IMG/VR virus record: IMGVR_UViG_3300042516_002090
Location: 2,578 to 66,577 of that record
Reading direction: 5' to 3' (one strand)
DNA from: a virus
Length of the DNA stretch: 64,000 nucleotides
Position numbers and translations under genes: made by a program. Below the pieces are notes generated by a model, which was not told the DNA's origin, did not search any database, and worked only from the letters and a program-made list of their open reading frames with translations. Numbering within the stretch: position 1 is the first letter of the stretch; the number at the start of each line of letters is the position of its first letter. Positions 3,946 through 59,312 of the stretch are shown piece after piece.

Positions 3946-4292
3946 AATACCACAACTATGACGATTGGAAACTATCCAACCCCGACGACGATGGCCACTA
4001 CATCGAAGATACCGACGCCATTCAAGAGGACGTCTACTTCAAGTACCTTCACAATCGTGACAGACGCTGGGCATACGGAGTGATAAACAAGGACGGGTAT
4101 TCAATTACCATTACAAAGTACACATCGATTCCGGCCATCGACGTTGATTGGATGGACGCCACCGAGTTTAATCAGAACGACGAGACTAGCCGCTTGCGTA
4201 TACACTACAAGCAATTCACCTTCATTGACAGGGACGAGTTCGTCGAGGCGTACAAGGATGCCATAAACCAACTAAACAAAGTAATGCTGTGA
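3942..4292 (+). CDS. hypothetical protein
   Basis: ATGA coupling; YDDWKLSNP N-terminal motif. Confidence 0.75.
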   Translation: MKYHNYDDWKLSNPDDDGHYIEDTDAIQEDVYFKYLHNRDRRWAYGVINKDGYSITITKYTSIPAIDVDWMDATEFNQNDETSRLRIHYKQFTFIDRDEFVEAYKDAINQLNKVML

Positions 4293-17200: not shown

Positions 17201-17509
17201 GCAACACCCCTTGAATACAGACGTCACAAGCAGTCTATAAATTTCAATAGTTCTTGCCTGGATTTCAGCTACTGAATTATTAGAGTTGATTGGAACAAAG
17301 GCATTGCCACCAACCTCGTTTATAGTGTAAATGGGAAACTCAAACGATTTGTTTCCATCCTGCGTTATCGAAATCGTATCATACGAGTATGAAATGTACG
17401 TAGGAACCTGAGGCATGATTTGACTCATGCCAATTACATAGTTAGTCCCGTTTAAAAAAGATACGATGTCGTTTCCCTCGATCTGTATCTTTGTAATTGT
17501 TGAAATCAT
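14291..17509 (-). CDS. tail fibre / receptor-binding protein
   Basis: GTVTSI, ITVDQQGRIT and FTGTPTAPT..NTTQIATTAFV fibre motifs; Gly-rich C-terminal domain. Confidence 0.85.
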   Translation of the reverse strand: MISTITKIQIEGNDIVSFLNGTNYVIGMSQIMPQVPTYISYSYDTISITQDGNKSFEFPIYTINEVGGNAFVPINSNNSVAEIQARTIEIYRLLVTSVFKGCCECGNTEPECSIQYTYGNGTDSGTIYYDGGGAIRVSYTTANNQDFTGFWPIIQDGSWIFIFSKTDPTVFGIYQLSNYSDGGPGVYAQFNATLLDGPSSFPDGTSLCVDVTSVGGSLGTVTSITAGVGLDGGTITSSGTIDLADTAVTPGAYTNANITVDQQGRITSASSGTAGTGTVTSIDVDGGTGISVSPAGPITTSGTFTVTNTAPDQTVSLGTTGTGLAVTGTYPSFTLQNTLPDQTVSLTAGTGISVTGTYPSFTIASTGGGGILHGTASGTDTYTSTITGATTYADGDAYLIRFTNGNTTSSTLNINGFGAISIYRNNDGPVIGGDIWAGAEMLCVYNSTTNAFQAIGTSPNSLFSYVTNDDSVTITKGQAVYAFSGTGDRMTVKLANNTTDGTSAQTVGLVYSDSIGANQKGIIIMQGLITGLSTLKPVDGWADGMPVYLGPTAGSKTFTKPYAPNHLVYLGIVTTANPGGSGRMYVRVQNGYELDELHNVQAKTPSLKDTLWYDNSVSPGQWKTASISTILGYTPADINSPAFTGTPTAPTAASGTNTTQIATTAFVTNAVQQSLSFTGYFGDGTDGSVTINGSSGSGGTVTLANDMYYNDLTIDAGGILYLNGYRIFVSGTLDLTNAGSSAIHNNGYGGANNANSTGGASNLTGTGGRGGFGSTVYGWFIGGSATNGKHKGGSGGNGGTSSGNGSAGSSPPVLLSTEGLIGGVGGIGGVGGNSASGATGGAGATGQATGISVTNFGTYTPQTFITNPAGSGTFFNRTRQDVSNTANISFTSTTYIYFAGGHGGGGGGSGANVTVAGNGGGAGGGGGGTTVIFARNIVVGPSTNAAAISARGGRGGNGGSHTTFNGTGSGGAGGGGGGFVYLAAGSISGTSGVTFVSADGGTGGTGGDGRGAGNFGGQGGSGGNGGKITVINMAANSVTVVDSTAVAASTAATPTGITGTAGTAGATCTFSS

Positions 17510-18156
17510 GATTTACACTCTGCGTCAGAAGCAAAGGTACAAAACTCGTCGAGACTTTTGTACATTTTCACATACTTAGATGTAGGAAATTTGTCACGCC
17601 ACTCCATCTTGACTCGCGCCCACTCCGGACCGGTGCGTACAGGCTGCGCCCTTTTCTCTTCCTTAGCCCCCGAAAAGATAAAATCTATTACAGACTTCTT
17701 GCTAGGGCGACCGCCCTCCTTTCGTTTGTTCTCAATCAGAATCTTTACCTCGTCGAGCTTTTCGTGGTTTGCTTCTTCAAGCAATTCCACCATCTGACGA
17801 AGAGATATGCAAGAATCGAGCTTACCACGGGTTATCGAAACCTTCTCGCGAATAACCGGATCGCTGTCCAGGAACTTGATATCAAACCCAAGTTCGCGCA
17901 TAGCGAAGGTAAGGGCGAGAATGTCCGCCTTGATTTGCGCCGTCCCCCGGTTGGGAACCGAGGGGTAAATTGCGGAATGCGAGTCTGTGCGTTTGTCACC
18001 GTCTATCCATATTGATGTAATACTAATCGCGTAATCTGAATACTCCCTGTCAACAAGTACAGTTGCGTCGGGGAACCTTTCCTTTAGCTCCTTAATTAGC
18101 ACTCTATATTCGCCTAATTCATGCGGGGTTGGATCCGCTATTTTCAATTCTATCAT
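17506..18156 (-). CDS. hypothetical protein
   Basis: 216-aa ORF with own TATATTTG box (18180-18173). Confidence 0.75.
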   Translation of the reverse strand: MIELKIADPTPHELGEYRVLIKELKERFPDATVLVDREYSDYAISITSIWIDGDKRTDSHSAIYPSVPNRGTAQIKADILALTFAMRELGFDIKFLDSDPVIREKVSITRGKLDSCISLRQMVELLEEANHEKLDEVKILIENKRKEGGRPSKKSVIDFIFSGAKEEKRAQPVRTGPEWARVKMEWRDKFPTSKYVKMYKSLDEFCTFASDAECKS

Positions 18157-18663: not shown

Positions 18664-21600
18664 TTATTTTGTTTCGATGCCGTATTTTTTTCGTAACTCG
18701 GTTACTATTTGCTCTCTTTTTTTGTAAACCGCCTCTTGCATACCCTTCTCGCTCATGCCCTGCACGTCTAGATCGTACATCTTTTGCCAAAACTCATAAC
18801 GAACATTTTCGATTGCGTCCTGGCGATAGCTACTCAACAACTCAATCTTTTCTGCCTGTGAAGCAGCGTCTATACTTGACTTATTGCTATTTATTAGTTG
18901 AGCGGTTTCCTTGTTGATTATAAGACTAAGTGACTGCTTGAAGTCGTCGTCCATCTCAAAAGGTTCCCTCTCCGAGCCAACATTTACCTCTATCCAGTCC
19001 TTGGCATCCCATCTAGAGTAAGTCTTAGGGAACCACTTCTCCTTTGTTAGGTTATAATACGGGCTGTTTTCAACGTGGCTTGTTCCGTCCTTCCATACAC
19101 TTTCTGGAAGAAGAGCCTTGAGTACCGGGTTCGATGGCTGCACGTACACAGGCTCGCCGAAGTGGTCGTACATCAGACCTCCGTTGGTGTCCATGAATAC
19201 ATCAGTAAAGAAAATATCCGACACTATGTTATCAACCGCCCCGCTTCGTTTCTCCTTTTGAATACCCTTCCACGCCTCGTAGTCCTTCTTAATGTTTTCA
19301 TACAGGGTTGGGGAGAACGATGTTTCGATACCGTCTAAGAAAAATATCTCCAACGCTTCAGCCGCCTTTGCCTCGCCATATCCACCGTATAGTTTTTCTA
19401 TCGCTCTCTTTGGCGCGGACATCTCACTACCTGTTAGCTGGGCGCCGACAAGAGCAAGTATCTTGTTAAAGCCGACGGTTGTTTTATCCCCTTCACCAAA
19501 CCTTATATCGTTTGATACCTCGCCAAGGATTTTACCTATTGCCCCAAACACAGGGCCTGTCAATGACAGAGGAATATTTTTGCCTGCTATGGTTACACTG
19601 TTTGGCTCCGCACCCTCAGCCTCCATCTCAGCTCTTTGCTTGCTGTCCTCGGCCGATCCATAGAATTTGATCCACGCATTAGGGTCGAGTTTCACTTCAT
19701 CGTCATCCTCGTCGCCAAAGTCAAACAATGACGCGATAAGACCACCCCAAATCATTGTAGCCACTACGTTTTTAAACGCTCTGGATATCTTCTCCTCGTT
19801 AGTTAGAGGTACGGTGGTTGCCTTTCCGTCTATGTATCTAACCTTAACCCCAGTAATCTTTTTACCCGGTATGGCCGCTATTACAGCAGGAACAACAGGT
19901 ATGGACTTGTAGAAGTATTCTGCCATTACCGTGTTTAATCGGATGAAGCCTAGCACCGTACTCAGGGTAAGTCTTCCAAACGCAACAACCGGGTTGTCCG
20001 TATCTCGAAATGGAGTTGCCTTGGATATGAGGTTGAACACAGCTGCTCCAGCAAGTGTTTCCGGTTTTTGAAGAAGGAGGGACTTCCTGGCCTGGTGAGC
20101 CATCTCGTCGATAACTTCTTTAGGCATTGCGTTATGAACCTTGTCGCGAAGCTTTCTCTTTGCCCAACCCTTCGGTAACGACTCTCCGTTGGCAATCCTT
20201 TCTGCCGCCTCTTGAGCAACCTCGCTTTTGAAATTGTTTATCTGATCAGGACCTGCCTGTATAAGCTCCTTAAGTTGTTGATTCCAAACCGCTGACCCCT
20301 TCTTCATCTTGACACCTGACTTCTTATTCACCATGTCGAGGTAATTTTCAGCCTCGATGTAGGTGTAAATGTCTTGCAAGGCGCCGCCCATAAGTATATC
20401 CTGGGCGCTCATGAGTACCATACTTATCTCCGAAAGGGCAGGCAAGAACTTGCGCTTTCTATAACCGGAACTCATTAATTGACTAAAGGACTTTAAAAAG
20501 GCTTCTGTTGCGTAACGCGCTCTCCTGCCTCCCTTCTTGTTTATGAAGTCGCTTAGTATCTGAGCGTACTCCTTCTTTGTAACACGATAGATTGCGCCGT
20601 GAGCTTTTTCCTCAGGTCTTTCAAGCATGGTTGTTTCACCAAACCTAGACTGTGGTTTTTCCCACTTCGCGGCAACGGTTTCCCATCCCATTGTGGCGCC
20701 CTCGGCCCTCATCATTTTAGCAAACTTAATCGCCCTGGCCATTCTAGCCGGGTTGTAAAGAGCCGTGAACGCACCGTGCTGAATGCTCGATACTACAGCA
20801 CCCACACCGGATGCCATGATCGCCGTCTTAAATATATCCGAAAGCGCGTTCGTATAGAACTGCTCGGTAAGCCAGCGGCCAACAAGTGCGGCAGTGGTCT
20901 CGTCGTACTCACTAAGGATGTCGTTGATGTACCTGTTAATCTCTTGGTACAACTCCTCTCCGGGCTGGAGTGCTTGCAGCCTATCAAAGTATCCCTGCAA
21001 CTTCACAATGTCGCTTTGAGATATCCCCTTATAGCCAAGCGTGTCCAAAAGAGCGGCCTCAAACTGAGAATCAGAAACCTGTCCCTTAGAAATAGCCCTG
21101 ATAACTCCCTTCTTCACACTCTCGGCGTCCTTAATTCCCTGCATGATCGAGTCTATGCTCTGCTTTTTGGCCTTGATTTTTTCATCAACCTTCTCCGCAA
21201 TCAAAGGCTCGATTTCAGTCTGTAGCTGTGAGGCGTATGCCGGGTCTATTCCAAGGTTGTTGACCAGCGCCTCTGCAAGGGTTTGTATTTTCGCGTTTTG
21301 ATTTGTGATGTGTTCGGCGGCTATACGAGCAATCTCCTTGTCCATATCCTCCTTGCTAAGCGATGCGGCTGCGGCTCTTTTTTCTACACCACCAATTGGC
21401 ATCTCAAGCAGGTCAGATACTAGCGCGTCAATCTCGTTCTTGATTGCCATCTTGGTCGCAGCGTCTAACTTCTCGTTAGCGTCTACGTTTGCCTTGGCAA
21501 TATTCATGGCCTTGGTCACCATCGACTCAACCTGGGCCTTGTTGTTTAGGATTGTCTTGAGCCTGTCCTTTGCCTTCACCTTCTCGCCACGGCTCTTGGC

Positions 21601-22848
21601 CATGACGTAATCAGGGTCGTTCTGTAGAATCGTGTCGGACAACATCTTCAGGGCCTTGTCCTTGACGTTCCTTGTGTCAGCAATACCCTCGAACGCCTTG
21701 GCCAAACGCTTGGTTGCGGTTACCTCTTTGTTCTTCTTAATGTCGGTATCGAAAGAGGACATGTTGTCGTCAACGATTTGATCTATCGCTGTACGTTCAC
21801 CGGGCAGTACGTCCTTGATTTGATTCCACACCTTGTTCTTAATCATCTTGGCCGAGTACGCACCCTCCTCGATGTATGACATAATAAGGTCCCTGATGTG
21901 TGGAGTTATCTCAGCTATAATTGAATTTGACAAGGCAAGTGGGCCTGGGGTCCTTTTCTTCGCCAGAATACCCTTGATTGCGTTTACACTAGCGGTTCTT
22001 TGAGCCTTAAACTCCGGCTTGACCGTTACAACGGTGGCCGTCTTCTTAACCTTTGGCATTGCAGCCGCAACAATAGCGATTGCCTCGGCCTGGTTGAGTT
22101 TTGCTATCTCACGCAGTTGTGTGATAGCCTCTCCAATAGTCATTCCGCCTGACGTTACCTGATTGAGGAAATTCCGCTTTGAACTATCCTCGTCCATTAT
22201 TCGGTTTGCTAACTGCTCTGGAGTTGACGCCGCCGCAAGTGCAGCTACTGTTTGACCGGCCGTAGTTCCTGATGTACCCTTAGTATTATATATCTTCTTG
22301 GCCATCTTATAATCGCCCTTCACGTAGAAGTAGTTAGCAGCCTTAGCCATAACCACTAAGTACTCATACTTTAACCCAGAGTTTTCAATCCATTCGTTCT
22401 CGGTTGTGTTTCCGTATGCACTTAACAAGTCATTAAATATATCCGTTTCTCCAGCTTCATATTGGGCTTTAAGTTGCTCGAACTTTTCGTTTGCTAAAAC
22501 CTCCATGGCCCTTTGATCAATGGCAATATACTCTTCAGTACCTATGCCTCGTTGCTCTGCAAGCCTTTCTCCATAAGCCCTCTGCCTTACGTCGCCGTAA
22601 GCCTCGCCTAGTCTTGACTTCATGAAGTCAGACATTGCGCTCTTCTTTTCTTTAGGTTGTTTCTTGGTGGTCTTAGGAGCCTCGGTAAACGGATTATCAC
22701 CCTTGAGGGCGTTAACGTTCAATTTGTCGTTGTTGATAAGCTCCTGCAGCGCCCCGTTATAGAGCATCTCCATGTACTGCTCAAAGGTTTTTTCCTCCGC
22801 AGCAGTAGCGCCCGGCATCTTTATAGTTACCTTACAAGGTTTCGCCAT
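18664..22848 (-). CDS. large virion ejection (internal) protein
   Basis: 1394 aa, Ala/Lys-rich, single Cys, last of ejection cluster. Confidence 0.7.
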   Translation of the reverse strand: MAKPCKVTIKMPGATAAEEKTFEQYMEMLYNGALQELINNDKLNVNALKGDNPFTEAPKTTKKQPKEKKSAMSDFMKSRLGEAYGDVRQRAYGERLAEQRGIGTEEYIAIDQRAMEVLANEKFEQLKAQYEAGETDIFNDLLSAYGNTTENEWIENSGLKYEYLVVMAKAANYFYVKGDYKMAKKIYNTKGTSGTTAGQTVAALAAASTPEQLANRIMDEDSSKRNFLNQVTSGGMTIGEAITQLREIAKLNQAEAIAIVAAAMPKVKKTATVVTVKPEFKAQRTASVNAIKGILAKKRTPGPLALSNSIIAEITPHIRDLIMSYIEEGAYSAKMIKNKVWNQIKDVLPGERTAIDQIVDDNMSSFDTDIKKNKEVTATKRLAKAFEGIADTRNVKDKALKMLSDTILQNDPDYVMAKSRGEKVKAKDRLKTILNNKAQVESMVTKAMNIAKANVDANEKLDAATKMAIKNEIDALVSDLLEMPIGGVEKRAAAASLSKEDMDKEIARIAAEHITNQNAKIQTLAEALVNNLGIDPAYASQLQTEIEPLIAEKVDEKIKAKKQSIDSIMQGIKDAESVKKGVIRAISKGQVSDSQFEAALLDTLGYKGISQSDIVKLQGYFDRLQALQPGEELYQEINRYINDILSEYDETTAALVGRWLTEQFYTNALSDIFKTAIMASGVGAVVSSIQHGAFTALYNPARMARAIKFAKMMRAEGATMGWETVAAKWEKPQSRFGETTMLERPEEKAHGAIYRVTKKEYAQILSDFINKKGGRRARYATEAFLKSFSQLMSSGYRKRKFLPALSEISMVLMSAQDILMGGALQDIYTYIEAENYLDMVNKKSGVKMKKGSAVWNQQLKELIQAGPDQINNFKSEVAQEAAERIANGESLPKGWAKRKLRDKVHNAMPKEVIDEMAHQARKSLLLQKPETLAGAAVFNLISKATPFRDTDNPVVAFGRLTLSTVLGFIRLNTVMAEYFYKSIPVVPAVIAAIPGKKITGVKVRYIDGKATTVPLTNEEKISRAFKNVVATMIWGGLIASLFDFGDEDDDEVKLDPNAWIKFYGSAEDSKQRAEMEAEGAEPNSVTIAGKNIPLSLTGPVFGAIGKILGEVSNDIRFGEGDKTTVGFNKILALVGAQLTGSEMSAPKRAIEKLYGGYGEAKAAEALEIFFLDGIETSFSPTLYENIKKDYEAWKGIQKEKRSGAVDNIVSDIFFTDVFMDTNGGLMYDHFGEPVYVQPSNPVLKALLPESVWKDGTSHVENSPYYNLTKEKWFPKTYSRWDAKDWIEVNVGSEREPFEMDDDFKQSLSLIINKETAQLINSNKSSIDAASQAEKIELLSSYRQDAIENVRYEFWQKMYDLDVQGMSEKGMQEAVYKKREQIVTELRKKYGIETK

Positions 22849-23339
22849 TAGAACAATTTTTCTTCGAGAAGCAATAACTTGAATTTATCCTTTCCATCCA
22901 CATCCTCAAGCATATTGAGCTTGTCGCTGTACTCCGCAACAGACTTGGTCTGTATCAAACGGAACTGTTGCAAGAAGTCAAACGTGCAAAGGTCCATGTT
23001 GAAAAGTTTTTTGGACGTGTCTTCATACGCCTCGTACAAATCGTACTCAATCTTGTATGCCTCCTCTAGCACCTCAAGAAGCCCGGAGAAGTCTACGCGT
23101 GGCTTGGGTACAGTGGGAAGTGGAACCGTGATGTTCCAGTCCACCAAGTACTTTTCAATCTTGGCCGCGTGTTCGAGTTCATCCTGCGACTCAGCCGCGA
23201 AAAAGGCAGCCGCCTTGAAGTATCCAACACCCTGACACCAGTTGCTGGCGGCACGATAGAAGTAAAATGCATCCATCTCGTCAAGATGGCGTGGAGCTAG
23301 TAGGTCTACTACACCTTTGTCTAAGCTATAAGGTTTCAT
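22848..23339 (-). CDS. ferritin (non-haem, FtnA-like)
   Basis: E..A..FY, ESQDELEHA, EAYKIE, Q....AE ferroxidase pattern; 163 aa. Confidence 0.85.
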   Translation of the reverse strand: MKPYSLDKGVVDLLAPRHLDEMDAFYFYRAASNWCQGVGYFKAAAFFAAESQDELEHAAKIEKYLVDWNITVPLPTVPKPRVDFSGLLEVLEEAYKIEYDLYEAYEDTSKKLFNMDLCTFDFLQQFRLIQTKSVAEYSDKLNMLEDVDGKDKFKLLLLEEKLF

Positions 23340-23345
23340 GTTTTA

Positions 23346-26300
23346 TTACGGGCAACCGTCGGTTTTATCTGTTATCACACCTGCTTCTTGCAGCTGCTTG
23401 TTAATGTCGCTAATATTTTTGTAAATATACTTCAACTTTGGGTCGAGATCCAAAATTTCATCAATGGCATCACGAGCTGCTGCACGTTCGGCACGGTCCC
23501 CGTCCTTGATCTTATAGTAATTTTCAACAATACTACTGATGTTTGCCGCCAACCCGGAGGTAGGCGCTGCCTTTGGAGCCTTTGGGGCCTTTGGAGCCGG
23601 CTTCTTAGGTAGGCCCCTAGGTGTAACACCAAAGTCCTCCTTAATGAACTCATCGAATTGATTCTTATACTTCGGATTAAGTTCATTGTACCAGTCCTGG
23701 CTACCAACAAAGTCATTAACAGCTATCTGGGCGTCCGTGCCTGATGCAATCGCCTCGTCAATGGCATCCATTGCGTCCTCCATCAACCTCTGAATCTCGT
23801 CATTGCTTCGGTTAATCATGGACATCTGACCTTCCTGGGCGACCTGTTTAGGTTTATTAAACTCCGCCTCACGCTTGGTTACCTCTGCTGCTTTGATTTT
23901 TGCTGATGGCATTGCGCCCATAATGGCCTTAGCCGCCTCAGGTTTTCCTCGCAGGCCAAACTGTGTAGGGTTCACGTCCTTACCTGTACCCATCGGCTTT
24001 GACTCGTAGAATATTGAACGAGCGTCAAGCATTTCATTTAGATACTTGACTGACTTAATTGTACCGCTAATAACGTAGTTATAAGACTTATGGTGGTACT
24101 CGTCGGCCTCCTCTGTCTTTACAACCTTCAGGGACTCAGGATCGTACTCTACAAATCCTACAACGTCTCCGTACTCGGCGTTGGCAAACGCTGGTTCGTT
24201 AGTGTAGTCAAGAATAGTCTGATCCATTTTATAGGTAGCACCTCCGCTAATGGAAGGAATACCAAACTTCAGGCTGTTACCTACATTGAATACTTTTTTG
24301 AAGTAGCTTGATCTTACGTCATAGGTAGAATCAAAAAGTTCGTCATAAAGCTCTTGAACCGAATTGAATCTTATACCCTTTTTATAAATGGCGTCTATCT
24401 TGGCCAGGGCCGTGTTCTTTCGGGCAGCTATCCCCTTTGAAGACTTGTTAAACTCTGCTGGAGTTATTTTTCCATCCTTCAGCGACTTCTTTATTTTGTT
24501 TTCTTCTTTCTCTATATCGGCTAACTGTTTTCTTATAACCACCGTCCCCGGTCTGTCCTCTAAGAGTTTTTCATAAAATGGAAAGTCCTTTTGAAACGCT
24601 GTGTTGAGGGGATTGTTTATCGCGTCCAACAGTTCGTTTATGAACTTCTTCGCCTCGGCCTTCTGCTGTGGAGTTGACTTGCTACTTGCCAGTGTGTCTT
24701 GGTGCGGCTTCAGTGCCTTATTCAACAAGTCAGCGTAGTGTGCAAGCATCATCTTGTTACCCAGAACTCCAGTAGATGCCTGAGCGCCTATAGCCGCAAG
24801 CTGACCCTTCTTTAAAGCATTCAATAGCTTGTTTGCCCCATCCTCGTCGGTGGTCGCCCACACAGAGCCATTTAGTATCTCACTTATTTTACCTGAGATT
24901 AGGTTGGCCAGCTCCTTTTGGTTCGCCCATATCGGGTAAAATCCGCCACCTCTGCCATAAAAAGGTACTCCTGTAGGAGACACAACATCCCCCACAACCT
25001 GCTTGTCACCTAAGAAACCAACAGCTGTTTTTCCGTCGTACTCCTTAATGTCGGCGTATTGGATCAGGGAGCTATCAAATGGACGTTCTACAGTGGTATC
25101 TTTTACCACGCCTCTGTTGGTTTTGTCGCGGTTAAGAATAGTGAACTGACCACCATTATTACCCAGGATAATGTTTTCGTATCGCTTCACGTTTTCCTTA
25201 CCAACAACATCACCTATCGTCCCGCCATTATTCATGGCAAACGAAAGCTTCTGAGCAAACTCTCTGAACTTTTTAGCAGACGCGTTCTTGTCCACAGGGT
25301 TATAGCCAAACATTCTGGCTATCTTGTTCATTATGTCAACGAGTAGGTCCTTGAGGCTTTTGTTAAGCTCAGTAACATTAACGTCCCCGGTAACAATTTT
25401 AGCAAGCGTCTCTACGACAATCTCGTCCTCAATGGTTTCGCTACCCTTTAGTTGGTATCCTCCCGTGTCCTTCACCTCGTTTATGATATTAGCAATAGCG
25501 CCGTTTACCTGCGCCTCGCCCTTAATCCCGTCTACAATAGCCTGATAAAGCTCAGGGTTTGTGTTGCGGATGATATTTATCACCGGGTGAATACCCTCGT
25601 GAAACGCGATAACCCTACCGCTTGAACTCTTGAGTCGGTCGCGGTTAATGTAGATTACACCGTAGTCTTTGCTGGCAAGGAATATACCATCGATACTACC
25701 CTCCACCTGACGCTGTTGACCGAGCCTCTGTGCCTCGTTGTCGTCAATAATTTTTACATCAATGCCAGACTCCTTGACAAACTCTTGAATTCTTTCAGCG
25801 GCGTTCTCACCATCGGTCTCGAACATCTTAGCAATACGTGCCTTGCCTGTGCGCTTTGGCGCCTCTTTTTTAGGAGTCTTAGCTTCGCTTTCAAGAACAG
25901 ACTTAACGTCCTTTGCAAAAGGAGTTGAGCCATAATCTTTTTTAAAATCATCAAAAGTAAATTCTTTTAAATCATAAGCTAAATGTTCGGCCCAGTTAAT
26001 ACCTTTATTAACAAGCAAAGAACTTAGCTCGCTGCTAAATCCATATTCATCTTGCAGATACTTTATTATTTTTTTTGGATCACGATTCCAAATAGGCATA
26101 TCCAAAACCTCAACCGCACTAGCTGCCTTTTTTACATATTCAAATGCTTTTTCGTAGTCCTCTTTAGACGCCGGGATAGTATCATATTCATATGCTTCTT
26201 TTAGATCCTTAACGGATTTTATTGCTGCTTCTTTTGCTTCCTCTAATGAACTAAATGTTTGAACGTTTTCATATCGTGTATCTAAATTAAATTTATTTCG

Positions 26301-29300
26301 CACACTTGTCTTTAAAACGTATTCAGGATTTCCGTCATCGTCCTTGCCTTCTTTCTCTATAGTAACTTTTGTTTTATCGAAGTCGTTTGATTCGGTAAAC
26401 AAAACGTCACCGTTTTCATCTACAGTTTCATTACCCCACTCAACATCCTCTGATTTCTTAGGATCAACCTTAGATGGCATTTTGTAATTAGTAGCCTTCT
26501 GTTCTTGAACTTCAACACTTGTGCTAGGGGTTGACAATCCATTCTTAATACCTTCTTTTAATAACTTAATATTTCCATTTATATATTCAATTCTAAACTC
26601 TTGTGATCTGAATGCATCTTTGTTGCTTTTCTTAATTGATTTAAGTTTATCCTTAGCCTCGGCAAGAAGTTTTTCATTCAGCTTCAGCTCTTCTTCATAA
26701 TCAACAACAGGGTCTGAATTTTGAGCAATCGCCCACCATTCCTTATCTCTATCCTTTAATTTTTTTACATCTCCTCCATGATGATATTTATACAATGCAT
26801 CAGGATTGGTTGTAAGACCGAGTTCTTTTGCAATAGAATCGTTTCTTTTTCTCCATTCCTCTAAAACTGATGACCTCGGTACGTTAAATCCCCACTCTTG
26901 TGGATGTGACATTTGAATCAACAAATACAAATCCACAGCCGACGCCTCTCCAATGTTGAATTGATTGTATCTAAGAAGCTGAGGATACTCTTGGGTTAGA
27001 TCAGTTTCAGATTTGTAAAATTCTGGAGAAGACAATGTCCCCTTTACACCTGCGGGTATAAAGGTATTCCTATTAGATTTTTGAACAGTTTTAGGTGCTT
27101 GTTTTGACACCGGCTGTTTGCCTGTTTTCTTTTCAGCCTTTGTTTCAGGTTCTTTTTTGGTCTCCGTCTTTGTTTCTACTGGTTCTACTTTATCCTTAGA
27201 TTTTCTTTTCTTTTTGTATTTTCCAGCAACGAACAAATAGTTAGGTTCTTTTTCATTGGGAACCTTAACAATTTCACCTGTGTTGATATTTTGTATTTCA
27301 GATATTAATGTCGGAGTAACGCTTGTAGAATATGAACTTAATACCTCATACTCCTGACCGTCTTTTATTGATTTTATCAAGTTCCCACTTCCTAAGTCAC
27401 TTAAAGAAATAGGTGTTTCACTTGTGATCTCTCTTAATGTTGCACCAAAATCAAGAAATGTATGTGTGCTTTCTAGCTGTCCATTATCGTTTATAAAAAC
27501 ACGTATACCTCTCTGATCTTCACCAAACAAAAAATACGCTTCCGTTACATCTTCTCTGTCATTGTATCCAGGGTCATCACTAAGATCAAACGGTTCTCCT
27601 ACTCTTGCTATTTTCATAGGCCCAGACATATGAGTACCCATAATCACAGTAGCACCTACTATTTTTCCAATGTTTTCTTTTGTGAATTTAGCAGGGAATA
27701 CCTTTTTGCTGTTTATAGTTGGCTTTGTGGCTGGAGCCTCTGTTTCAGGTTCTTTTTTGGTCTTAGGCTCAGGCTTTGTTTCAGGAGCCTTTTTCCCCTC
27801 AGTAAGCTCGGTTCGGCGGAAATTCGCTTCTCCTGCATATGCGGGTTCTCCTTCTGGCTTTAAAATCACCAATGAGTTATTGCCCACGTAAGATTCTGGC
27901 CATTCTTCTGAGTCAATGTTTCCAGGGAGTCTTTCTATTACAATATTTTCAGTTTCATCCGGGCCAAGGACTACGCCTTCGATATAACTTACCCAACCCA
28001 TTCTTTCATCAATAGCACGAACCACTATGTCGCCAACTTTGAATTCAGAGAGCGGCTTTCCGTTTTTATTAACTTCTTCTATCCTATCACTTACAAATTT
28101 CTCGTTTTCTTCGGTTTCAAATAACCTAGACTCCCGTGGTTTGCGCTCCTCAGTCTTAGTTTCAACTGCCGCAGGCTCGGCCTCCTCCTCGCCCTCAAAT
28201 ATCTTGGCGATGCGCTTTTTACGAGTAGTCTTGGGTTCGGTTTTGACTTCAGGCTTTGTCTCTGGAGCTTTTTCTTTTTTAGCCGGAGCTGCTTCTTCTA
28301 CTTGAGGGGCGGCTTGTGTTTTGGAGGCTTCGAGGGCGGCTAGTTTTGCGTCGTATTCAGCATTGATTTTATCTTTAGATTTTTGAAAACCACTTCTACT
28401 TACAATTTCAAAAAACAAATTAGGAGATTCTTCTGTGTTGCTCCATAATCCATTACTTTCATCTAATACTTGAGGTCTTCCGGTATTTTCATTTACTCTA
28501 AAAATTCTATTATTTGGATCACCAATTATTTTAAACTCCCCGTCTTCAACTGTTGGTTTTCTATCATAAACTACTCTATTTTTTAACTCTTCTTGTCTTT
28601 CCTTTTCTACTTCTTCCCTTTGTGCTTGAAGTACTCCACCTGCTTCAGGCGTTTCTGCGCTTGGGACTTCGATAGGTTTGGCTGCGACAGGTTCTTGCCC
28701 GACTCCGACTTGACCTGATACCCTTGTTTCGTTTTCTTTATCATATTTTAGATTGTTAAGATTTTCAAGCAATAACTTGGAGTTGCCCTGCTGGCCCTCT
28801 CTTATCTGTAACGTCTTGCCGTCCTCGGTGGTGATGTTTACCGATACTATCTTCCCGTTCTTCTCAGCGTAATTATTAAGAGTCGCATTCTTCCCGGCGT
28901 AGTTAATCGTCGCACCCTTCTCAAGCGTTGGCGTAATGAGAGTGTTTTGATTCTCGATGTTCATTTCACCGACAACACCCTCGTCGGTCTCGATTCCCAT
29001 TTCGCGAATCTTATCGACTGCACCCTCTCCCTTCTCAACAATAACACTCTTACCGTTGTTGTATTCTATCTCGTAGTCACCATCCTCGTTAATAAAGAAG
29101 TTGGCGTACTGTCCACCAATCACAACACGCTGAGGTGTTGTTGACGTGCCTACTGACTTGGCGCTGATGCCGTTTTCCCCAAGCGACAAGATTTCTTGAC
29201 GCTCGTTTTTCAATCTTTCAATCTGAGCATTGATAATAGGGTCCTTCAGGTCTGTATCCTCAAGGGTTCGTATCTGCTGGGTAATGCCAAAAGCCCTGGC

Positions 29301-31826
29301 CTTCTTAGGTCTGTCAAGGTTCTTCCAGTTAGGATGAGCAGAAAGATTCATAAAATCCTCCCTTGGCCCCTTCATGTCCTGCTTCAGCTTGCCGATGTTA
29401 TTGTTGTTGTTGTAGGCCGCTATTATACCATCAGCGTTCTCCACCGCTTCGAGCATGATCTCCTCTGAGATATTTGAAGCGCCAACAGGTCTCTTAAAGA
29501 AATTACCCACGCTACCACCGATCAGACCACCTAACGCCGCGTCCTTATATGCTCTGCTATTCAAAAGGTCCTTGAAGTATTCGGTCTCGCCAATGTAGTT
29601 GATCAGACCCTTAACACCATCATCAACGGTCTTTTGGGCCAACTCCTCGCCGCCTTCTTTGAGGCCGGAAAGCAAGTATGATTCCGCTGATTCGGGCATG
29701 GCATTTCTAAACGCTTGAGAAACACTTTTGCTACTAGCGATTTCATTCAGCATTGATTTTCTGAATGCAGATGGCTCAAAGTACTTGATATCTGGAATTA
29801 ATCCTTCTACCAACGATGTCGCCACCGCCACCGCAGTTGATGCAGCCGCAGCTTGTCGTGGGGACATTTTGTGCGTATTGATTGCCTCCTCATAAGCGCC
29901 AACCTCTGTGGTTAGCATTGATGACACGAACGTAGCTCCGAACTGAGACATCTTTGATGCCCCGCCAAACGTACCGCCAAGTGCGAATACAGCAAGAGAG
30001 GACAAGGTGTTACCACCAAGACCAGCCAAATACTGAGTAGTCGATTCAGAGTCTATGCTTGGAAAATCAAGTTGCTTTTCCATTCTGTAGTTTTCCACGC
30101 CGTCGTAGAACTCGTCCAAGAAATTGTATTCTGTATTACCAGTGATAAGATCCTCTACAACCTTTGGTATCTGAACCACGTTAAGGGCTAGATCTCCGAT
30201 ACCCGAAGCAAACGTGTTGGCTAGTTCGCCGGGAGCGTAAACCATCTTCATTAATGGAGATGCGCTTTCCCATCTTTGCTTTCCAGCCTCTTGGGCTTTT
30301 TCTATCTGATCTTTTAAAGTGCTGTACTCGGAGTAATAATTTATATTTTCTTGGTTCATTGTACCAAGAGCCTTGAGCGACAATGCCGACTGACCCAACT
30401 GTTGATACGCGCCTTTTGCTTGTTGCAGCTTAGCCACGTTTTCGTCAGTCATTCTTGACCTAACCTTCAGTGTTTCGTAGTCTTGTTGCAACTTATTGCT
30501 TCGCTCTTCAAGTTGTGCAAAACTTGGATACTTTGCCTTGTACGCCTCGTATTCAGCCTTGTATTCGTCAGTGATCCTATTAAACTCAGCCTCATAATCT
30601 TCACGATTCATGGTTGAGGCTTTGGTGTTTAAACTTTCGATAGCCTTATTGAAGGCCGCTTCTTTCTCACTCCATTGAGCAGAAGACTGACTAGCCTGTT
30701 CGTTAAGTCTCTTGTATTCGCTATCAATAGCCGCTCTCTCCTTATTCAAGGCTATCACACCACTGTCAAACATTCGAGTGTCAATAGAAGCCTCTATCTG
30801 AGAGTATTCGTTTACGGCTGACTTTTGTTTTTCGTAGTTCCTCTTTATGGCAGACATCTTCATTTGAATAGCCCTGGTCTCCATTGAATGAAGCCACTCT
30901 TCATTCTTGGCGCTTCTGTCCGCTTTTGATTTTAATGCCAGATATTTGTTTTGTTCCGCCTCACCAGCCTCTGGGTATTTGGCTTTCATGTAGGTGAAAT
31001 AGTCATCCATCAAAGCGGATGTTATCTCACCTCTTTTGCCCTCTTTCTCAATGGTAGTTCCATTGGGAACTTCTCTTTGGCCAAGAGCAATTTGAAGATC
31101 CGTTAAATCAGCCGGTGCTACTGTGAAGTACGGGAAGAACTTATCAGACTTGTTGCCAGCACTTTCCATGTAGCTGTCTATCTCCTCGCCAAACTGAGCC
31201 TCGTACTCTTTCTTTATCTGATTGTCTACATCCTCCTTTGATAGAAGATTTACACCTTTCTCTTGCAGTACTTGTTGGCTCTTTTCAAAAGCCTTTTGAT
31301 TAACCTTTTTAATGGTCTCTTCAGATGTCCAATCGGTTCCTTTCTCCTCAGAAATCTTTGTAACAGGAGACTGTACAAATTTGCCTTCCTGTACCTTTTC
31401 CTCAACCGACTTTATTGTTTTAGCCATTTGAGGAACCTGAGCTTGTGTGGTCTCAGACGGCAACTCTGGGCGACGAAATGTGATATCCTGTTCTTTCTTT
31501 TGAGGTTCTTTCTTAACCCCTTTCATTACAGGCTGCCCACTAACAAGCGCGTCAGTGACTACTTTTTGCCCAAAACTCGGCGCAGAAGGCTGACCAGGCT
31601 GCTGTACAGGCTGACCAGAAGCGGCTTGTGTACCGTCTTTTTTTTTTACACCAAGAATACTCTCAAATTCATTATAGTCTTTGAATCCAAGCTCCTTATT
31701 AGAGTTTTCAAAAAACACTTTACGACTATTGTTGTTAGCCATTAAAGACTTAAACTCATCATAGCCATTGAAACCCTTATTGTTTGCGTAATTATCCCAA
31801 AGGAACTTTAACTGATTCTCGTTCAT
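23346..31826 (-). CDS. giant polyvalent ejection protein with zincin-like domain
   Basis: 2826 aa; Gly/Ala hydrophobic segments; YIN...FHEGIH...DEIVVE; single Cys. Confidence 0.75.
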   Translation of the reverse strand: MNENQLKFLWDNYANNKGFNGYDEFKSLMANNNSRKVFFENSNKELGFKDYNEFESILGVKKKDGTQAASGQPVQQPGQPSAPSFGQKVVTDALVSGQPVMKGVKKEPQKKEQDITFRRPELPSETTQAQVPQMAKTIKSVEEKVQEGKFVQSPVTKISEEKGTDWTSEETIKKVNQKAFEKSQQVLQEKGVNLLSKEDVDNQIKKEYEAQFGEEIDSYMESAGNKSDKFFPYFTVAPADLTDLQIALGQREVPNGTTIEKEGKRGEITSALMDDYFTYMKAKYPEAGEAEQNKYLALKSKADRSAKNEEWLHSMETRAIQMKMSAIKRNYEKQKSAVNEYSQIEASIDTRMFDSGVIALNKERAAIDSEYKRLNEQASQSSAQWSEKEAAFNKAIESLNTKASTMNREDYEAEFNRITDEYKAEYEAYKAKYPSFAQLEERSNKLQQDYETLKVRSRMTDENVAKLQQAKGAYQQLGQSALSLKALGTMNQENINYYSEYSTLKDQIEKAQEAGKQRWESASPLMKMVYAPGELANTFASGIGDLALNVVQIPKVVEDLITGNTEYNFLDEFYDGVENYRMEKQLDFPSIDSESTTQYLAGLGGNTLSSLAVFALGGTFGGASKMSQFGATFVSSMLTTEVGAYEEAINTHKMSPRQAAAASTAVAVATSLVEGLIPDIKYFEPSAFRKSMLNEIASSKSVSQAFRNAMPESAESYLLSGLKEGGEELAQKTVDDGVKGLINYIGETEYFKDLLNSRAYKDAALGGLIGGSVGNFFKRPVGASNISEEIMLEAVENADGIIAAYNNNNNIGKLKQDMKGPREDFMNLSAHPNWKNLDRPKKARAFGITQQIRTLEDTDLKDPIINAQIERLKNERQEILSLGENGISAKSVGTSTTPQRVVIGGQYANFFINEDGDYEIEYNNGKSVIVEKGEGAVDKIREMGIETDEGVVGEMNIENQNTLITPTLEKGATINYAGKNATLNNYAEKNGKIVSVNITTEDGKTLQIREGQQGNSKLLLENLNNLKYDKENETRVSGQVGVGQEPVAAKPIEVPSAETPEAGGVLQAQREEVEKERQEELKNRVVYDRKPTVEDGEFKIIGDPNNRIFRVNENTGRPQVLDESNGLWSNTEESPNLFFEIVSRSGFQKSKDKINAEYDAKLAALEASKTQAAPQVEEAAPAKKEKAPETKPEVKTEPKTTRKKRIAKIFEGEEEAEPAAVETKTEERKPRESRLFETEENEKFVSDRIEEVNKNGKPLSEFKVGDIVVRAIDERMGWVSYIEGVVLGPDETENIVIERLPGNIDSEEWPESYVGNNSLVILKPEGEPAYAGEANFRRTELTEGKKAPETKPEPKTKKEPETEAPATKPTINSKKVFPAKFTKENIGKIVGATVIMGTHMSGPMKIARVGEPFDLSDDPGYNDREDVTEAYFLFGEDQRGIRVFINDNGQLESTHTFLDFGATLREITSETPISLSDLGSGNLIKSIKDGQEYEVLSSYSTSVTPTLISEIQNINTGEIVKVPNEKEPNYLFVAGKYKKKRKSKDKVEPVETKTETKKEPETKAEKKTGKQPVSKQAPKTVQKSNRNTFIPAGVKGTLSSPEFYKSETDLTQEYPQLLRYNQFNIGEASAVDLYLLIQMSHPQEWGFNVPRSSVLEEWRKRNDSIAKELGLTTNPDALYKYHHGGDVKKLKDRDKEWWAIAQNSDPVVDYEEELKLNEKLLAEAKDKLKSIKKSNKDAFRSQEFRIEYINGNIKLLKEGIKNGLSTPSTSVEVQEQKATNYKMPSKVDPKKSEDVEWGNETVDENGDVLFTESNDFDKTKVTIEKEGKDDDGNPEYVLKTSVRNKFNLDTRYENVQTFSSLEEAKEAAIKSVKDLKEAYEYDTIPASKEDYEKAFEYVKKAASAVEVLDMPIWNRDPKKIIKYLQDEYGFSSELSSLLVNKGINWAEHLAYDLKEFTFDDFKKDYGSTPFAKDVKSVLESEAKTPKKEAPKRTGKARIAKMFETDGENAAERIQEFVKESGIDVKIIDDNEAQRLGQQRQVEGSIDGIFLASKDYGVIYINRDRLKSSSGRVIAFHEGIHPVINIIRNTNPELYQAIVDGIKGEAQVNGAIANIINEVKDTGGYQLKGSETIEDEIVVETLAKIVTGDVNVTELNKSLKDLLVDIMNKIARMFGYNPVDKNASAKKFREFAQKLSFAMNNGGTIGDVVGKENVKRYENIILGNNGGQFTILNRDKTNRGVVKDTTVERPFDSSLIQYADIKEYDGKTAVGFLGDKQVVGDVVSPTGVPFYGRGGGFYPIWANQKELANLISGKISEILNGSVWATTDEDGANKLLNALKKGQLAAIGAQASTGVLGNKMMLAHYADLLNKALKPHQDTLASSKSTPQQKAEAKKFINELLDAINNPLNTAFQKDFPFYEKLLEDRPGTVVIRKQLADIEKEENKIKKSLKDGKITPAEFNKSSKGIAARKNTALAKIDAIYKKGIRFNSVQELYDELFDSTYDVRSSYFKKVFNVGNSLKFGIPSISGGATYKMDQTILDYTNEPAFANAEYGDVVGFVEYDPESLKVVKTEEADEYHHKSYNYVISGTIKSVKYLNEMLDARSIFYESKPMGTGKDVNPTQFGLRGKPEAAKAIMGAMPSAKIKAAEVTKREAEFNKPKQVAQEGQMSMINRSNDEIQRLMEDAMDAIDEAIASGTDAQIAVNDFVGSQDWYNELNPKYKNQFDEFIKEDFGVTPRGLPKKPAPKAPKAPKAAPTSGLAANISSIVENYYKIKDGDRAERAAARDAIDEILDLDPKLKYIYKNISDINKQLQEAGVITDKTDGCP

Positions 31827-31838
31827 AATTTATACAAA

Positions 31839-33113
31839 TTATTTATTTTGCTCTCTCATGAGTTCGGCCATTGTCTTTTTACCTCCTGTTGAACCCGTGC
31901 CGGTTGATGTGTCTGTATTATCGGTTGAATTATTTTTTTGAATAAAGTCTTCCATCACATCATAGCCGTTCATCTGCGCTTTCAATGCCTGTTTGTTTTT
32001 ATTATAACTAATATATGAGTCTACATCTTTGCCACCTTGTTTTTTAAATCCTCTGATACTAATTTCATTCCCCTTTAAGTAAAAAGCGGTCGGTTGAAAC
32101 TGTATTAAATTACCGTTGTCATCTTGTAGATTTAAAAATGGGAGGTTATCATTTGACGCTGTTCTTGTAATGCTTATTGCGTTTGCCTTATTAGCGGCTG
32201 GATAAGCGGCATCGTTTCCATACGTTATAGTTAATTTACCATCCCAGTTACCCGTACCGTACCCACTCTCCTTCTCTTCCTTATCTTCTCTAGATTGTTT
32301 GGTAGTGCTTCTTTTTGTCTTATCAGCTTTGAATGTAGCCTCAAATATCTCCTCCGCCTTCTTCATCAAATCAGCATCGTCCTTATACTTGCCACTATTC
32401 ATCAATGCTTCGTAGTCCTCCATTCCGCTTTGATCGTTGAAGTAAATTGACATTAACTTCTTAAAGTCCTCCTTATCCCTTCCCGTTATATCATATCCGC
32501 CTTGGGTTAATTTTTGCTCCTCCATTTTTTCTCCAATAGAATAAACAAGATTAGTAAGATCTACATTCTTTTGGTATGGCTTGCCCTGTTGGCGAATCTT
32601 GGCCCTTTCGGAAGGAGTAAGGTTTGGGTCGGCGTATTGTTCAAACCATTTGGTGGCGTATTCCTGATTCCATGTTTTTCCAGCATCCTCATCAATGTTG
32701 AAAGTATTCTTATCCCAATACTCTTTATTAGCCTTGGCCGCATTGGTTTCACGAATTACTTCAGTTTTAAGCCTTTCAAGTTCTCTTGACTCTTTTGCTG
32801 GTAAATCGTATGGGTTATATCCTTGCTCTCTAAGTGATCTAACGTAGTCGTTATAAGCTAAACTTTTTTCTTTAACCTTCTCGAAATCTAAATTCCATAC
32901 GTCAGGGGTCTTCTCAAGCATGGTGTTCCATGCGTTATTCTTCTTTTGCTGCTCCTCTTTCCTAAGTTTTTCGTCTTCACGAATATCCTTAAGCCACTGA
33001 TTCATGTTTTCAAGTGAAGAGCTTATATCCTCGGAATAGGCTGCACCTTTTCCCGAACCAGACATTTCGCCTGCTGCCCCTGTATAAACTACTGCTGCGC
33101 TTGGTACTCCCAT
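31839..33113 (-). CDS. virion ejection protein
   Basis: 424 aa, Cys-free, position in internal-protein cluster. Confidence 0.6.
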   Translation of the reverse strand: MGVPSAAVVYTGAAGEMSGSGKGAAYSEDISSSLENMNQWLKDIREDEKLRKEEQQKKNNAWNTMLEKTPDVWNLDFEKVKEKSLAYNDYVRSLREQGYNPYDLPAKESRELERLKTEVIRETNAAKANKEYWDKNTFNIDEDAGKTWNQEYATKWFEQYADPNLTPSERAKIRQQGKPYQKNVDLTNLVYSIGEKMEEQKLTQGGYDITGRDKEDFKKLMSIYFNDQSGMEDYEALMNSGKYKDDADLMKKAEEIFEATFKADKTKRSTTKQSREDKEEKESGYGTGNWDGKLTITYGNDAAYPAANKANAISITRTASNDNLPFLNLQDDNGNLIQFQPTAFYLKGNEISIRGFKKQGGKDVDSYISYNKNKQALKAQMNGYDVMEDFIQKNNSTDNTDTSTGTGSTGGKKTMAELMREQNK

Positions 33114-33125
33114 TTCAATTTATTT

Positions 33126-33929
33126 TTATCCCGGAATCCATGTTTGTAAATATGGATCGTAATATCCACCACCATAAGATCCACCTATTTGATTTTGCCA
33201 ATTAGCACCCATTCCAGATCCTCCGGCAGGATTTCCGTAATTTCCAAATTGACTATTTTGCATAGAGCCGGCCCCCATTATTGCATTAGCAGCAGACGGA
33301 GCAACAGAACCTATATCGAAGCCGCCTCCGCCCAATCCGCCTCCTCCACCGAATTGAGTTATTCCACCACCCACTGTTTGAGCCAAACTACCAAATGCGT
33401 TAAAGGTATTATTTGATTCCTTGTATCTCTTTTCTTGAAGAGCAGAAATAGCAGCCGACGTTCTCAAGAATGGGTTTAACTCATTCTCTCTGTACATTAC
33501 GTCTCTGTATTGACCTATTTGACCAGCAAGTTGAGCAATTGCGCGCATCTTTTCCTGCTCGGCCTCTCCTTGATATTGAGCAGCTGTCTCTGAGAGCTTT
33601 AAGCCGCCCATCATCCTTTGCTCTCCAAGCCCTGTTGCCGCTGCTAATAAATCTTGAGAACTAGTGGCCGCCCTGCTTACTCCCCCCAAAGCTTGCCCAT
33701 AAGACATGTCCATACCATATCTAGCAAGTTGCTGTCCCGGCATTTCTGTAGACATCCCAAGCTGTCTGTTGTAAGCAGACATCAGTTCTGGAGGGAGTTC
33801 ATATGAAGGCTCTACTAAACCCTTCTTAAGCCTGTTTATTTCTTTTTTAGCACGATTGGAGCGAACAGCACTTTGTATGCCTTTACCGAGAGCTATACTG
33901 CCAACTACTACTGATCCTATTATAGGCAT
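33126..33929 (-). CDS. virion ejection protein (T7 gp14-like position)
   Basis: Hydrophobic Gly-rich N-terminus, Q/A helix, Gly-rich tail, Cys-free. Confidence 0.65.
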   Translation of the reverse strand: MPIIGSVVVGSIALGKGIQSAVRSNRAKKEINRLKKGLVEPSYELPPELMSAYNRQLGMSTEMPGQQLARYGMDMSYGQALGGVSRAATSSQDLLAAATGLGEQRMMGGLKLSETAAQYQGEAEQEKMRAIAQLAGQIGQYRDVMYRENELNPFLRTSAAISALQEKRYKESNNTFNAFGSLAQTVGGGITQFGGGGGLGGGGFDIGSVAPSAANAIMGAGSMQNSQFGNYGNPAGGSGMGANWQNQIGGSYGGGYYDPYLQTWIPG

Positions 33930-59269: not shown

Positions 59270-59312
59270 GCTTTCTAGGTGATACTCATTATATTTGCAA
59301 ATATCTACCTTA

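Follow-up and report, generated by a model that had tools for sequence, protein, structure and literature searches.

The ejection operon of the Schitoviridae, exemplified by gp71-gp73 of phage DEV and gp50-gp52 of N4, encodes a giant virion protein of more than 3000 amino acids (aa) together with two smaller proteins, and these are ejected into the host (PMC11445570). In the available text of that report cysteine makes up 0.00075% of the gp71 homologues compared with 0.865% in the proteomes, and the suppression is ascribed to passage of the oxidizing periplasm. A second described class is that of the polyvalent proteins of phages and conjugative elements (Iyer, Burroughs, Anand, de Souza and Aravind 2017; PMC5512222), presented in the available text as very large mosaics of unrelated effector domains, whose genes lie among those of the virion and which are predicted to enter the host along with the injected DNA. 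Here we analyse a pair of giant proteins of an uncultured phage, each of which contains a single cysteine at the end that faces the other. The DNA studied (the window) comprises 64,000 of the 66,577 bases of the virus record IMGVR_UViG_3300042516_002090 (positions 2,578 to 66,577), which is rated complete by CheckV; coordinates are those of the window unless a related locus is named. An earlier note on this DNA had proposed that the two giants are a split protein that is re-linked covalently through these cysteines, starting from the premise that the ejected proteins of podoviruses avoid cysteine. For N4 and DEV that premise is in print, in the text available (PMC11445570).

The upstream giant (2826 aa) is encoded at 23346..31826 on the minus strand, and is a mosaic protein of putative polyvalent type. 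Its sole cysteine is residue 2825, in the terminal sequence TDKTDGCP; the codon is TGC (23352-23354), and is followed by that for proline and a double stop. The downstream giant (1394 aa; 18664..22848, minus strand) has its sole cysteine at residue 5 (MAKPCKVT), encoded by TGT at 22834-22836. Two smaller proteins precede the giants, one of 267 aa (33126..33929, minus strand) that is the first gene of a putative internal or ejection block, and a second of 424 aa (31839..33113, minus strand). Neither contains cysteine. These counts, made by script, confirm what the earlier note had read from the translations, and the interval that it singled out (22834-23354) runs exactly from one cysteine codon to the other. 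The ends do face each other as it had stated, but the two genes are not adjacent; a 163-aa ferritin-like open reading frame (ORF) lying between them (22848..23339, minus strand) had been overlooked.

The N-terminus of the 267-aa protein is weakly hydrophobic and its C-terminus rich in Gly; cysteine-free counterparts of this protein occupy the same position in relatives. Those of the 424-aa protein are likewise free of cysteine, and vary between 405 and 885 aa in length. In the 28 remaining ORFs of the window that are 150 aa or longer, 124 of 11105 residues are cysteine (1.12%). At this rate about 55 would be expected in the 4911 aa of the four block proteins, and two are observed (binomial P = 1.8e-21). 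We infer location in the virion and ejection from gene order, composition and the domains found in relatives; the proteins of the block (267, 424, 2826 and 1394 aa) are most likely stored inside the capsid and exit by way of the tail.

Could the terminal cysteines be without function, i.e. chance survivors or the by-product of a DNA signal at the gene boundaries? It is true in general that gene ends can hold regulatory sequence, and nothing further speaks for this explanation. For the window by itself, a lone cysteine would fall by chance within the last 3 of 2826 residues, and another within the first 11 of 1394, with a joint probability of ~8e-6. At both sites the two synonymous codons are used; among 21 distinct ends of 45 nucleotides (nt) each, TGC and TGT occur 12 and 9 times at the C-terminal site and 7 and 14 times at the N-terminal site, and the adjoining codons vary. 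In an alignment of 19 diverse upstream ends (A2; last 150 aa) the cysteine is the sole invariant column. In the corresponding alignments of the downstream protein (A3, with 19 diverse sequences over the first 130 aa, and A5) only M1 and C5 are invariant. The cysteine is kept in tails as divergent as VKCP, VRCP, KECP, GNCP, TKNC, SCRK and KPCNI, and in heads such as MASPC, MALNC, MADC, MPC, MAC, MAKKKGPC and MARVKFDLGDC.

Homologue searches give the same result. Exactly one cysteine, at position 5, is present in 23 of 25 homologues of the downstream giant, the other two being N-truncated fragments that start in mid-sequence; the 23 include proteins with bodies of ~25% identity, and two in which only the N-terminus is common. 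A search with the last 627 residues of the upstream giant returned 45 homologues, of which 42 have a cysteine at position -2, and 41 of these have no other. P0067 has cysteine at both -2 and 5, P0030 has one at position 5 only, and P0031 (4533 aa) and P0070 (1651 aa) have none. A search that was unbiased with respect to cysteine was made in viral contigs, using a DNA pattern for the C-terminal peptide in which the cysteine and proline codons were left unspecified. All nine loci found end in Cys-Pro-stop; the ferritin gene is next in eight of them, with a MAxPC start beyond it in all six that extend that far. Finally, a profile made from 38 sequences (A5), which covers the initial 52 positions of the downstream giant, was compared with a library of 1.84 billion representative proteins, giving 276 matches at E <= 0.001. 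The best 150 of these were examined and six set aside, namely four repeat proteins, one partial internal match (P0132) and one mis-called start (P0130). The remaining 144 all match at their N-terminus, and in every one there is a cysteine within the first 12 residues (at position 5 in 88 and position 3 in 38), a count that carries a small bias since the profile itself includes the cysteine. Where the protein is at least 600 aa long, it is the single cysteine in 86 of 106 matches, again among the best 150 of 276.

Since the cysteine is the sole invariant column and both of its codons are used, selection is judged to act on the residue itself, and this purifying selection is extreme. Chance is excluded for practical purposes, and the probability that the cysteines are functionless is negligible.

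The conserved sequence around each cysteine forms a compact module. That of the upstream giant covers approximately the last 45 aa (23349..23483, minus strand; ending DPKLKYIYKNISDINKQLQEAGVITDKTDGCP), and that of the downstream giant approximately the first 45 aa (22714..22848, minus strand), with the consensus MAxPCxxTYKGKEYxYxEFxxxLxxGxL. In relatives too, the piece that precedes the cut terminates in a small, predicted helical module with cysteine at -1 to -3 (usually CP-stop), while the piece after it starts with a small putative module having cysteine at positions 3 to 11 (usually MAxPC). The C-terminal cysteine is at -2 in 48 of 54 distinct tails, and at -1 and -3 in three each; in 55 distinct heads the N-terminal one is at position 5 in 33, and between 3 and 11 in the remainder. 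Proline lies on the outer side of the cysteine at both ends, as C-P in 46 of the 54 tails and P-C in 37 of the 55 heads, so that the geometry is mirrored. Hidden Markov models of the end modules, compared with every ORF in the related loci, gave 98 matches to the N-terminal and 96 to the C-terminal module, none of them internal. Among the best 150 of the 276 matches of the head module in the protein library, those not at the N-terminus were the six that had been set aside. Amongst 98 complete, distinct relatives of at least 600 aa there are 119 cysteine residues in 158,377 aa, with exactly one in 83 of the proteins.

The two cysteines are also kept or lost together, as the earlier note had anticipated for homologues. 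Loci were anchored on the ferritin gene alone, i.e. blind to cysteine, giving 40 viral and 80 metagenome loci (120 in all, including those lacking the cysteine pair). Those that show both the upstream end and the downstream start were kept, and identical triplets were collapsed into 80 distinct combinations of upstream tail, ferritin and downstream head. Both terminal cysteines are present in 61 of the 80 and neither in 17; there is one case each of upstream only (L121) and downstream only (L126). Thus the pair is kept or absent together in 78 of 80, and the other two can be explained. In L121 Cys3 is present, in a downstream ORF of 331 aa that merely failed the length rule. L126 is equivalent to L129 with a 7-nt deletion, and the tail GNCP-stop is readable in the shifted frame. 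In the 78 we include L051, assigned by hand to the class with both; the partner (1246 aa, starting MAC, with its sole cysteine at position 3) sits behind an inserted ORF of 445 aa. The co-occurrence is near perfect in counts and thin in evolutionary events.

Two observations on these loci stand on their own. The deletion in L126 (~3990-4250) shifts the frame of the upstream gene ~90 codons before its end in a sequence that is otherwise 98% identical to L129; if it is not an error of assembly, this copy is a natural mutant from which the cysteine-bearing tail has been lost. The ORF inserted between ferritin and the downstream giant in L051 (10575-11912) has eight cysteine residues and no Pfam match, and L051 is the only locus seen in which a second gene separates the pair.

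The 17 cases with neither cysteine belong mostly to one clade (class B), in which a single giant without terminal cysteine is followed by ferritin and then by small cysteine-rich proteins, one of them a peptidase M15. In three of the 17 (L092, L127 and L130) the ferritin gene is in another context, with no adjoining giant. Two giants of class B, those of L057 (4518 aa) and L058 (4203 aa), contain no cysteine. Each comes after two cysteine-free proteins (238 and 496 aa in the first case, 221 and 491 aa in the second), and each is followed by ferritin with no large partner. The giants of the window add up to 4220 aa. Thus unsplit, cysteine-free relatives exist; the earlier note had suggested looking among homologues for co-occurrence of the pair or for a gene fusion. 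In a more distant phage (L014 and L015) there is one giant of 2614 aa (6200-14044 in L014), with no cysteine and no ferritin gene; residues 1710-1949 of the L014 protein match residues 473-722 of the downstream giant with 26% identity (E = 4e-10).

The bodies of these proteins are mosaic. Residues 2007-2656 of the upstream giant are 44% identical to residues 154-769 of P0030, which has an N-terminal cysteine and is of the downstream type, and the class B giants match pieces of upstream and downstream proteins alike, in no fixed order. The two kinds of protein thus appear to draw on one pool of modules, which have been exchanged between them. RadC, ART-PolyVal, GNAT and DUF7178 domains are carried by homologues of the upstream giant. 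In relatives sharing the end modules or bodies the matches are to ART-PolyVal (E = 9.8e-16), RadC (1.8e-17), DUF7178 (3.4e-31), LPD23 (1.8e-06 and 1.2e-07), DUF3293 (3.4e-10) and GNAT. Mosaic bodies and such putative domains are hallmarks of polyvalent proteins. No Pfam domain at E <= 0.01 and no PHROG or PDB match was found for either giant of the window, and tblastn of both against 50,697 phage records, a set that may omit those closest to the window, gave no match. The 267- and 424-aa proteins had no family match in PHROG, Pfam or PDB sequence searches. In the ESM Atlas the look-alikes of the downstream giant are viral clusters, one with LPD38 in 33% of its members, and this is a lead only; the Atlas leads LPD38, LPD22 and LPD14 are all weak.

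Five loci (L024, L060, L065, L075 and L077) show an additional cut in the giant. The gene order is first piece, a small CxxC protein, middle piece, ferritin and downstream piece (starting MAKPC or MAKNPC). The middle piece has a cysteine at each end, Cys5 in MAKGCVYIPK and one at -2 in GCP-stop. The sole cysteine of the first piece lies in an internal [IVE]KCPP[GK] motif, seen in L024 (2770-6249, residue 844), L065 (373-5610, residue 1442), L075 (2-5419, residue 1539) and L077 (3-2615, residue 797); the L060 contig shows only the last 147 residues of this piece. At the extra cut a new N-type cysteine has thus appeared together with a new CP-type one. The extension beyond the motif is Gly/Ala-rich and then Gln/Pro-rich in L024, where its 314 aa match no Pfam family, and it ends in a sequence of the form [AT]PDQYGNL[IV]P that is common to L024, L060, L065 and L075. 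Cleavage after the CP of KCPP would yield a normal CP end. The two junctions of one phage use differing end sequences. Proteins with cysteine at both ends are found elsewhere (P0067, L080, P0176, P0178, P0203, P0206 and P0218); with P0067 as query for related loci no locus was confirmed. Taken together, the giant part of the block is a putative mosaic polyvalent effector that is made as one, two or three polypeptides in different relatives.

These comparisons bear on the possibility that the two cysteines act independently, for example in anchoring to the portal or shell, in separate homodimers of the upstream and downstream proteins, or as a redox- or Dsb-dependent trigger of ejection, and that they co-occur through linkage and ancestry. 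The independent transitions are indeed few, the partner cysteine is not always terminal, and the prediction of a complex described below is weak. In addition, the cysteine-free state of ejection proteins is ascribed to the oxidizing periplasm in the available text of PMC11445570, whence a lone cysteine could be a deliberate target of Dsb. Yet the upstream cysteine is absent when the downstream protein is absent, which would not be predicted by self-pairing or anchoring of the upstream protein. New cuts bring a C-type and an N-type cysteine together, the ends face each other in the polarity of a chain with proline mirrored, and both end modules are found at termini only. We therefore consider independent action distinctly unlikely.

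The gene between the giants, placed within the late structural operon, encodes a full-length ferritin homologue, matching Pfam PF00210 over residues 20-145 (E = 1.8e-18; 67.3 bits compared with a cut-off of 24.5) and bacterial non-heme ferritins in the PDB over residues 6-153 (E = 7.8e-14). Its start is 6 nt past the double stop of the upstream giant, and its stop shares one base with the ATG of the downstream giant; it is thus apparently coupled in translation to the giants on both sides. Across 18 diverse copies E21, Y28, E54, H57, E98 and Q130 are invariant, and a C-terminus LLLE[EK]KLF is kept in many. The ferroxidase centre of Escherichia coli FtnA comprises E17, Y24, E50, H53, E94, Q127 and E130; by this list six of the seven residues are invariant in the phage ferritins, and the position aligned with E130 is Ser or Ala. 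The window ferritin has two cysteine residues, 35 and 118, of which Cys118 is invariant in the same 18 copies.

The ferritin raises the possibility of an indirect link between the giants, by way of a third component encoded at the junction or of a metal ion that the two share. On this view a junction would be a site of 1+2+1 cysteines, acting as a disulfide relay or as a tetrahedral Zn or Fe(Cys)4 clasp. There is a small gene at every junction. Between the upstream and downstream giants this is ferritin, mostly with Cys35 and Cys118 and seemingly coupled in translation to both neighbours. Between first and middle pieces it is a protein of 63-501 aa (L024 6249-6440; L060 446-1150; L065 5610-6950; L075 5419-6120; L077 2663-4168), whose only two cysteine residues lie in an invariant EGCHEC motif. 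A model of the latter has three strands and two helices with CxxC at a helix start (mean predicted local distance difference test score, pLDDT, 66.9). Possible roles for this protein are those of redox catalyst, metal half-site or piece of the link; it has no Pfam match over the CxxC domain and no Foldseek match in the PDB at E <= 0.001. Nor does the distribution of the ferritin cysteines favour an indirect link. Class B retains ferritin with both cysteines although its giant is cysteine-free and partnerless, so that they are conserved for another reason. By alignment the equivalent of Cys35 is also present in a Helicobacter-type ferritin, and the terminal pair is kept alongside a ferritin with a single cysteine in L045/L129, L055/L134, L119/L120, L099, L121, L131, L102-L104 and L135. 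An indirect link is accordingly rated as unlikely, and any role of ferritin in linking the cysteines is doubtful.

A direct contact between the two ends, which the earlier note had put forward for modelling, was examined by complex prediction with residues 2759-2826 of the upstream giant (the last 68) and residues 1-60 of the downstream giant, each with its own 19-row alignment. The interaction prediction score from aligned errors (ipSAE) was 0.43 (0.42, 0.43 and 0.43 in individual runs), whereas the highest-scoring of three controls gave 0.01. At least 95% of contacts are common to the runs, and the partner has a pLDDT of at least 68. The verdict was weak support. Of 80 solved complexes used in calibration 58 came up to the mark, as did 2 of 110 mismatched pairs; these counts hold only roughly here since our own alignments were used.

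The interpretation that we favour is that the end modules dock and their thiols bond head-to-tail, most simply as a disulfide, so linking the pieces of a split, cysteine-depleted and probably ejected polyvalent protein. We put its probability at about 0.5. The argument rests on five observations combined, i.e. extreme purifying selection on each cysteine in proteins that otherwise exclude it, ends that face one another in polarity, absence of the upstream cysteine where there is no partner, matched gain of cysteines at new cuts, and modules that occur at termini only. We infer the direct docking, the disulfide chemistry, and the place and time at which the bond forms and breaks. For the proposal of the earlier note, that a split protein is re-linked, the comparative part is borne out by the exchange of modules and by extra splits with extra cysteine ends, and as a whole it is partly supported.

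In the proposed mechanism, the tail and head modules would first dock. The thiols would then bond, most simply as a disulfide, either outside the reducing cytoplasm or during passage through the periplasm. This would generate a nearly unbranched chain N..C-S-S-N..C, with stubs of 1 to 4 residues, that could be held and translocated like a single polypeptide, and the link would finally be undone, by reduction, in the cytoplasm of the host. One residue follows the C-terminal cysteine, and three precede the N-terminal cysteine if methionine is removed, as is the rule before alanine. Such short stubs would fit a chain passing through a narrow channel, and the outer proline could shield the ends from exopeptidases.

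A broader version of the disulfide-linked chain is that the phages possess a modular coupling system. Docking pairs of mutually distinct types in the same phage (such as KCPP with MAKGCVYIPK, and TDGCP with MAKPCKVTIK) might allow a polyvalent effector of ~4000 residues to be cut anywhere, its pieces to be swapped through recombination, and the whole to be reassembled in fixed order as a linear, reducible chain of two, three or more proteins that would pass the tail as one polypeptide does. We advance this tentatively, as a possibility that is somewhat against the odds. The chemistry might also go beyond a disulfide, to a thioester or peptide ligation, an idea that arises from the conserved Gly-Cys-Pro end and the cysteine near the N-terminus, and for which synthetic ligation by cysteinyl-prolyl esters offers a parallel. 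This is very improbable.

Several points weigh against direct head-to-tail bonding. The sequence data fit a disulfide, but they also fit a metal bridge or separate, unrelated roles for the two thiols. The placing of the proteins in the virion is indirect, and the giants of the window match no entry in Pfam, PHROG or PDB. On a ferritin tree of 80 rows each trait changes four times, giving two independent pairs on well-supported branches and four on all branches; class B requires one to two changes. With so few independent pairs a sign test cannot reach significance. The two termini are ~500 nt apart and would therefore be co-inherited whatever their function, and because class B has no downstream protein only the loss of the upstream cysteine is informative. 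More than one cysteine is found in 15 of the 98 complete relatives, some having one to three extra internal residues. In the three-piece phages the partner cysteine of the first piece is not terminal, but lies 74 to 314 residues before the end, and the chain would be branched unless the extension is removed. In other split phages the two pieces add up to between 1739 and 4549 aa, so the picture of a single protein of fixed size divided in two holds only loosely. A fused form with both end modules side by side was not found, either in the ORFs of the related loci or among the best 150 of the 276 matches of the head module in the library of 1.84 billion proteins. Lastly, the complex prediction is weak; at ipSAE <=0.60 the mark was reached by seven of the 80 solved complexes and by both of the mismatched pairs that passed.

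The phage of the window appears from its genes to be an uncultured, 66.6 kb, distant relative of Cellulophaga and Flavobacterium podophages. The nearest named phages are the Cellulophaga phages phi19:3, phi46:3, phi18:3 and phi13:2 (Pachyviridae) and Flavobacterium podophages, and the identity of its portal to theirs is only 22-23%; from these distant portal relatives a host in the Flavobacteriia may be guessed. The giants belong to a minus-strand array. Upstream of them in this array are the terminase (49331-51832; phrog_6681, 6.1e-38) and the portal (46870-49266; phrog_6547, 8.1e-54), after which come head and tail-type genes and a virion structural protein of 1350 aa (phrog_14478). Then follow in order the proteins of 267, 424, 2826, 163 and 1394 aa, one of 216 aa, a tail fibre of 1072 aa (14291-17509, minus strand; phrog_2631) and an endolysin. 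The giants are therefore encoded among the virion and packaging genes of a portal-terminase phage, as polyvalent proteins are.

The 216-aa protein (17506-18156, minus strand), which directly follows the downstream giant, has three cysteine residues (116, 206 and 214; FCTFA and EECK) that are kept in many relatives, and the tail-fibre protein has a conserved N-terminal cluster (102, 103, 105 and 112). Thus conserved cysteine motifs adjoin the cysteine-free block. The early region on the plus strand (7490-8362, 5223-6218 and 59295-60332) contains a gene resembling that of PAPS reductase (phrog_424, 9.2e-45), together with genes for a Cas4/RecE-type exonuclease and for a metallophosphoesterase, all of them ordinary accessory genes of phages.

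If the ends do bond, they would illustrate a way of storing proteins whose length or modularity exceeds what a single gene can accommodate, and of delivering them in a defined order through a channel open only to unfolded chains. They would account for the shuffling of polyvalent anti-defence effectors with no loss of delivery, and would be a source of small, orthogonal, redox-reversible coupling tags for protein engineering.

Two other explanations of terminal cysteines were rejected. A lipobox does not agree with the position of the cysteine, and the defining domains are absent. A split intein resembles the present system in that a protein encoded by two genes is rejoined after translation, with cysteine at the junction. 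However, there is no Hint or intein match in Pfam, and the cysteines are at the extreme ends (-2 and +5) rather than at extein-intein boundaries. The conserved end modules (~45 aa) lie on the inner side of the cysteines, and with only 1 to 4 residues beyond them there is nothing to excise.

In phage T7 gp14, gp15 and gp16 are encoded between the genes for the tail tube and the tail fibre, stored on the portal, and ejected to bridge the envelope. The position of the genes matches that of the block in the window, while the sizes and mosaic content differ and no homology was detected; we know of no terminal cysteine pair in gp14-gp16. Ferritin-like proteins are known cargo of encapsulins. An HK97-type particle that carried ferritin would echo this. 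The phage gene is a full-length homologue of bacterial Ftn, from which it differs at the position of the last site-B glutamate (Ser or Ala in the phage copies). Ferritin-like genes are rare in phages, according to the available text of PMC8008677.

No homology to gp50-gp52 of N4 or gp71-gp73 of DEV was found by tblastn of the giants against the phage collection or in PHROG, and there is no RNA polymerase domain in the giants by Pfam, to which that search was confined. The words cysteine, disulfide and ferritin do not occur in the available text of PMC5512222, and a split with paired terminal cysteines is not described in it. Nor did we find a description of a terminal cysteine pair on split, ejected giants in the searchable literature (i.e. 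outside subscription journals and supplements). The relatives of the giants share with polyvalent proteins the ART-PolyVal, LPD23, RadC-like JAB, GNAT and DUF3293 domains, while the giants of the window differ from them in having no recognized domain themselves. The block resembles the N4-like operon in that its proteins, giant and smaller, are encoded together, suppressed in cysteine and putatively ejected. Thus suppression of cysteine in an ejection operon and the injection of polyvalent proteins were already known. N4-like proteins are essentially cysteine-free and their giant is a single polypeptide; by contrast each piece of the split giant here has one cysteine at the cut. The new feature is that, throughout a wide clade of uncultured phages, a cut end carries exactly one cysteine and the contexts of the two ends mirror each other.

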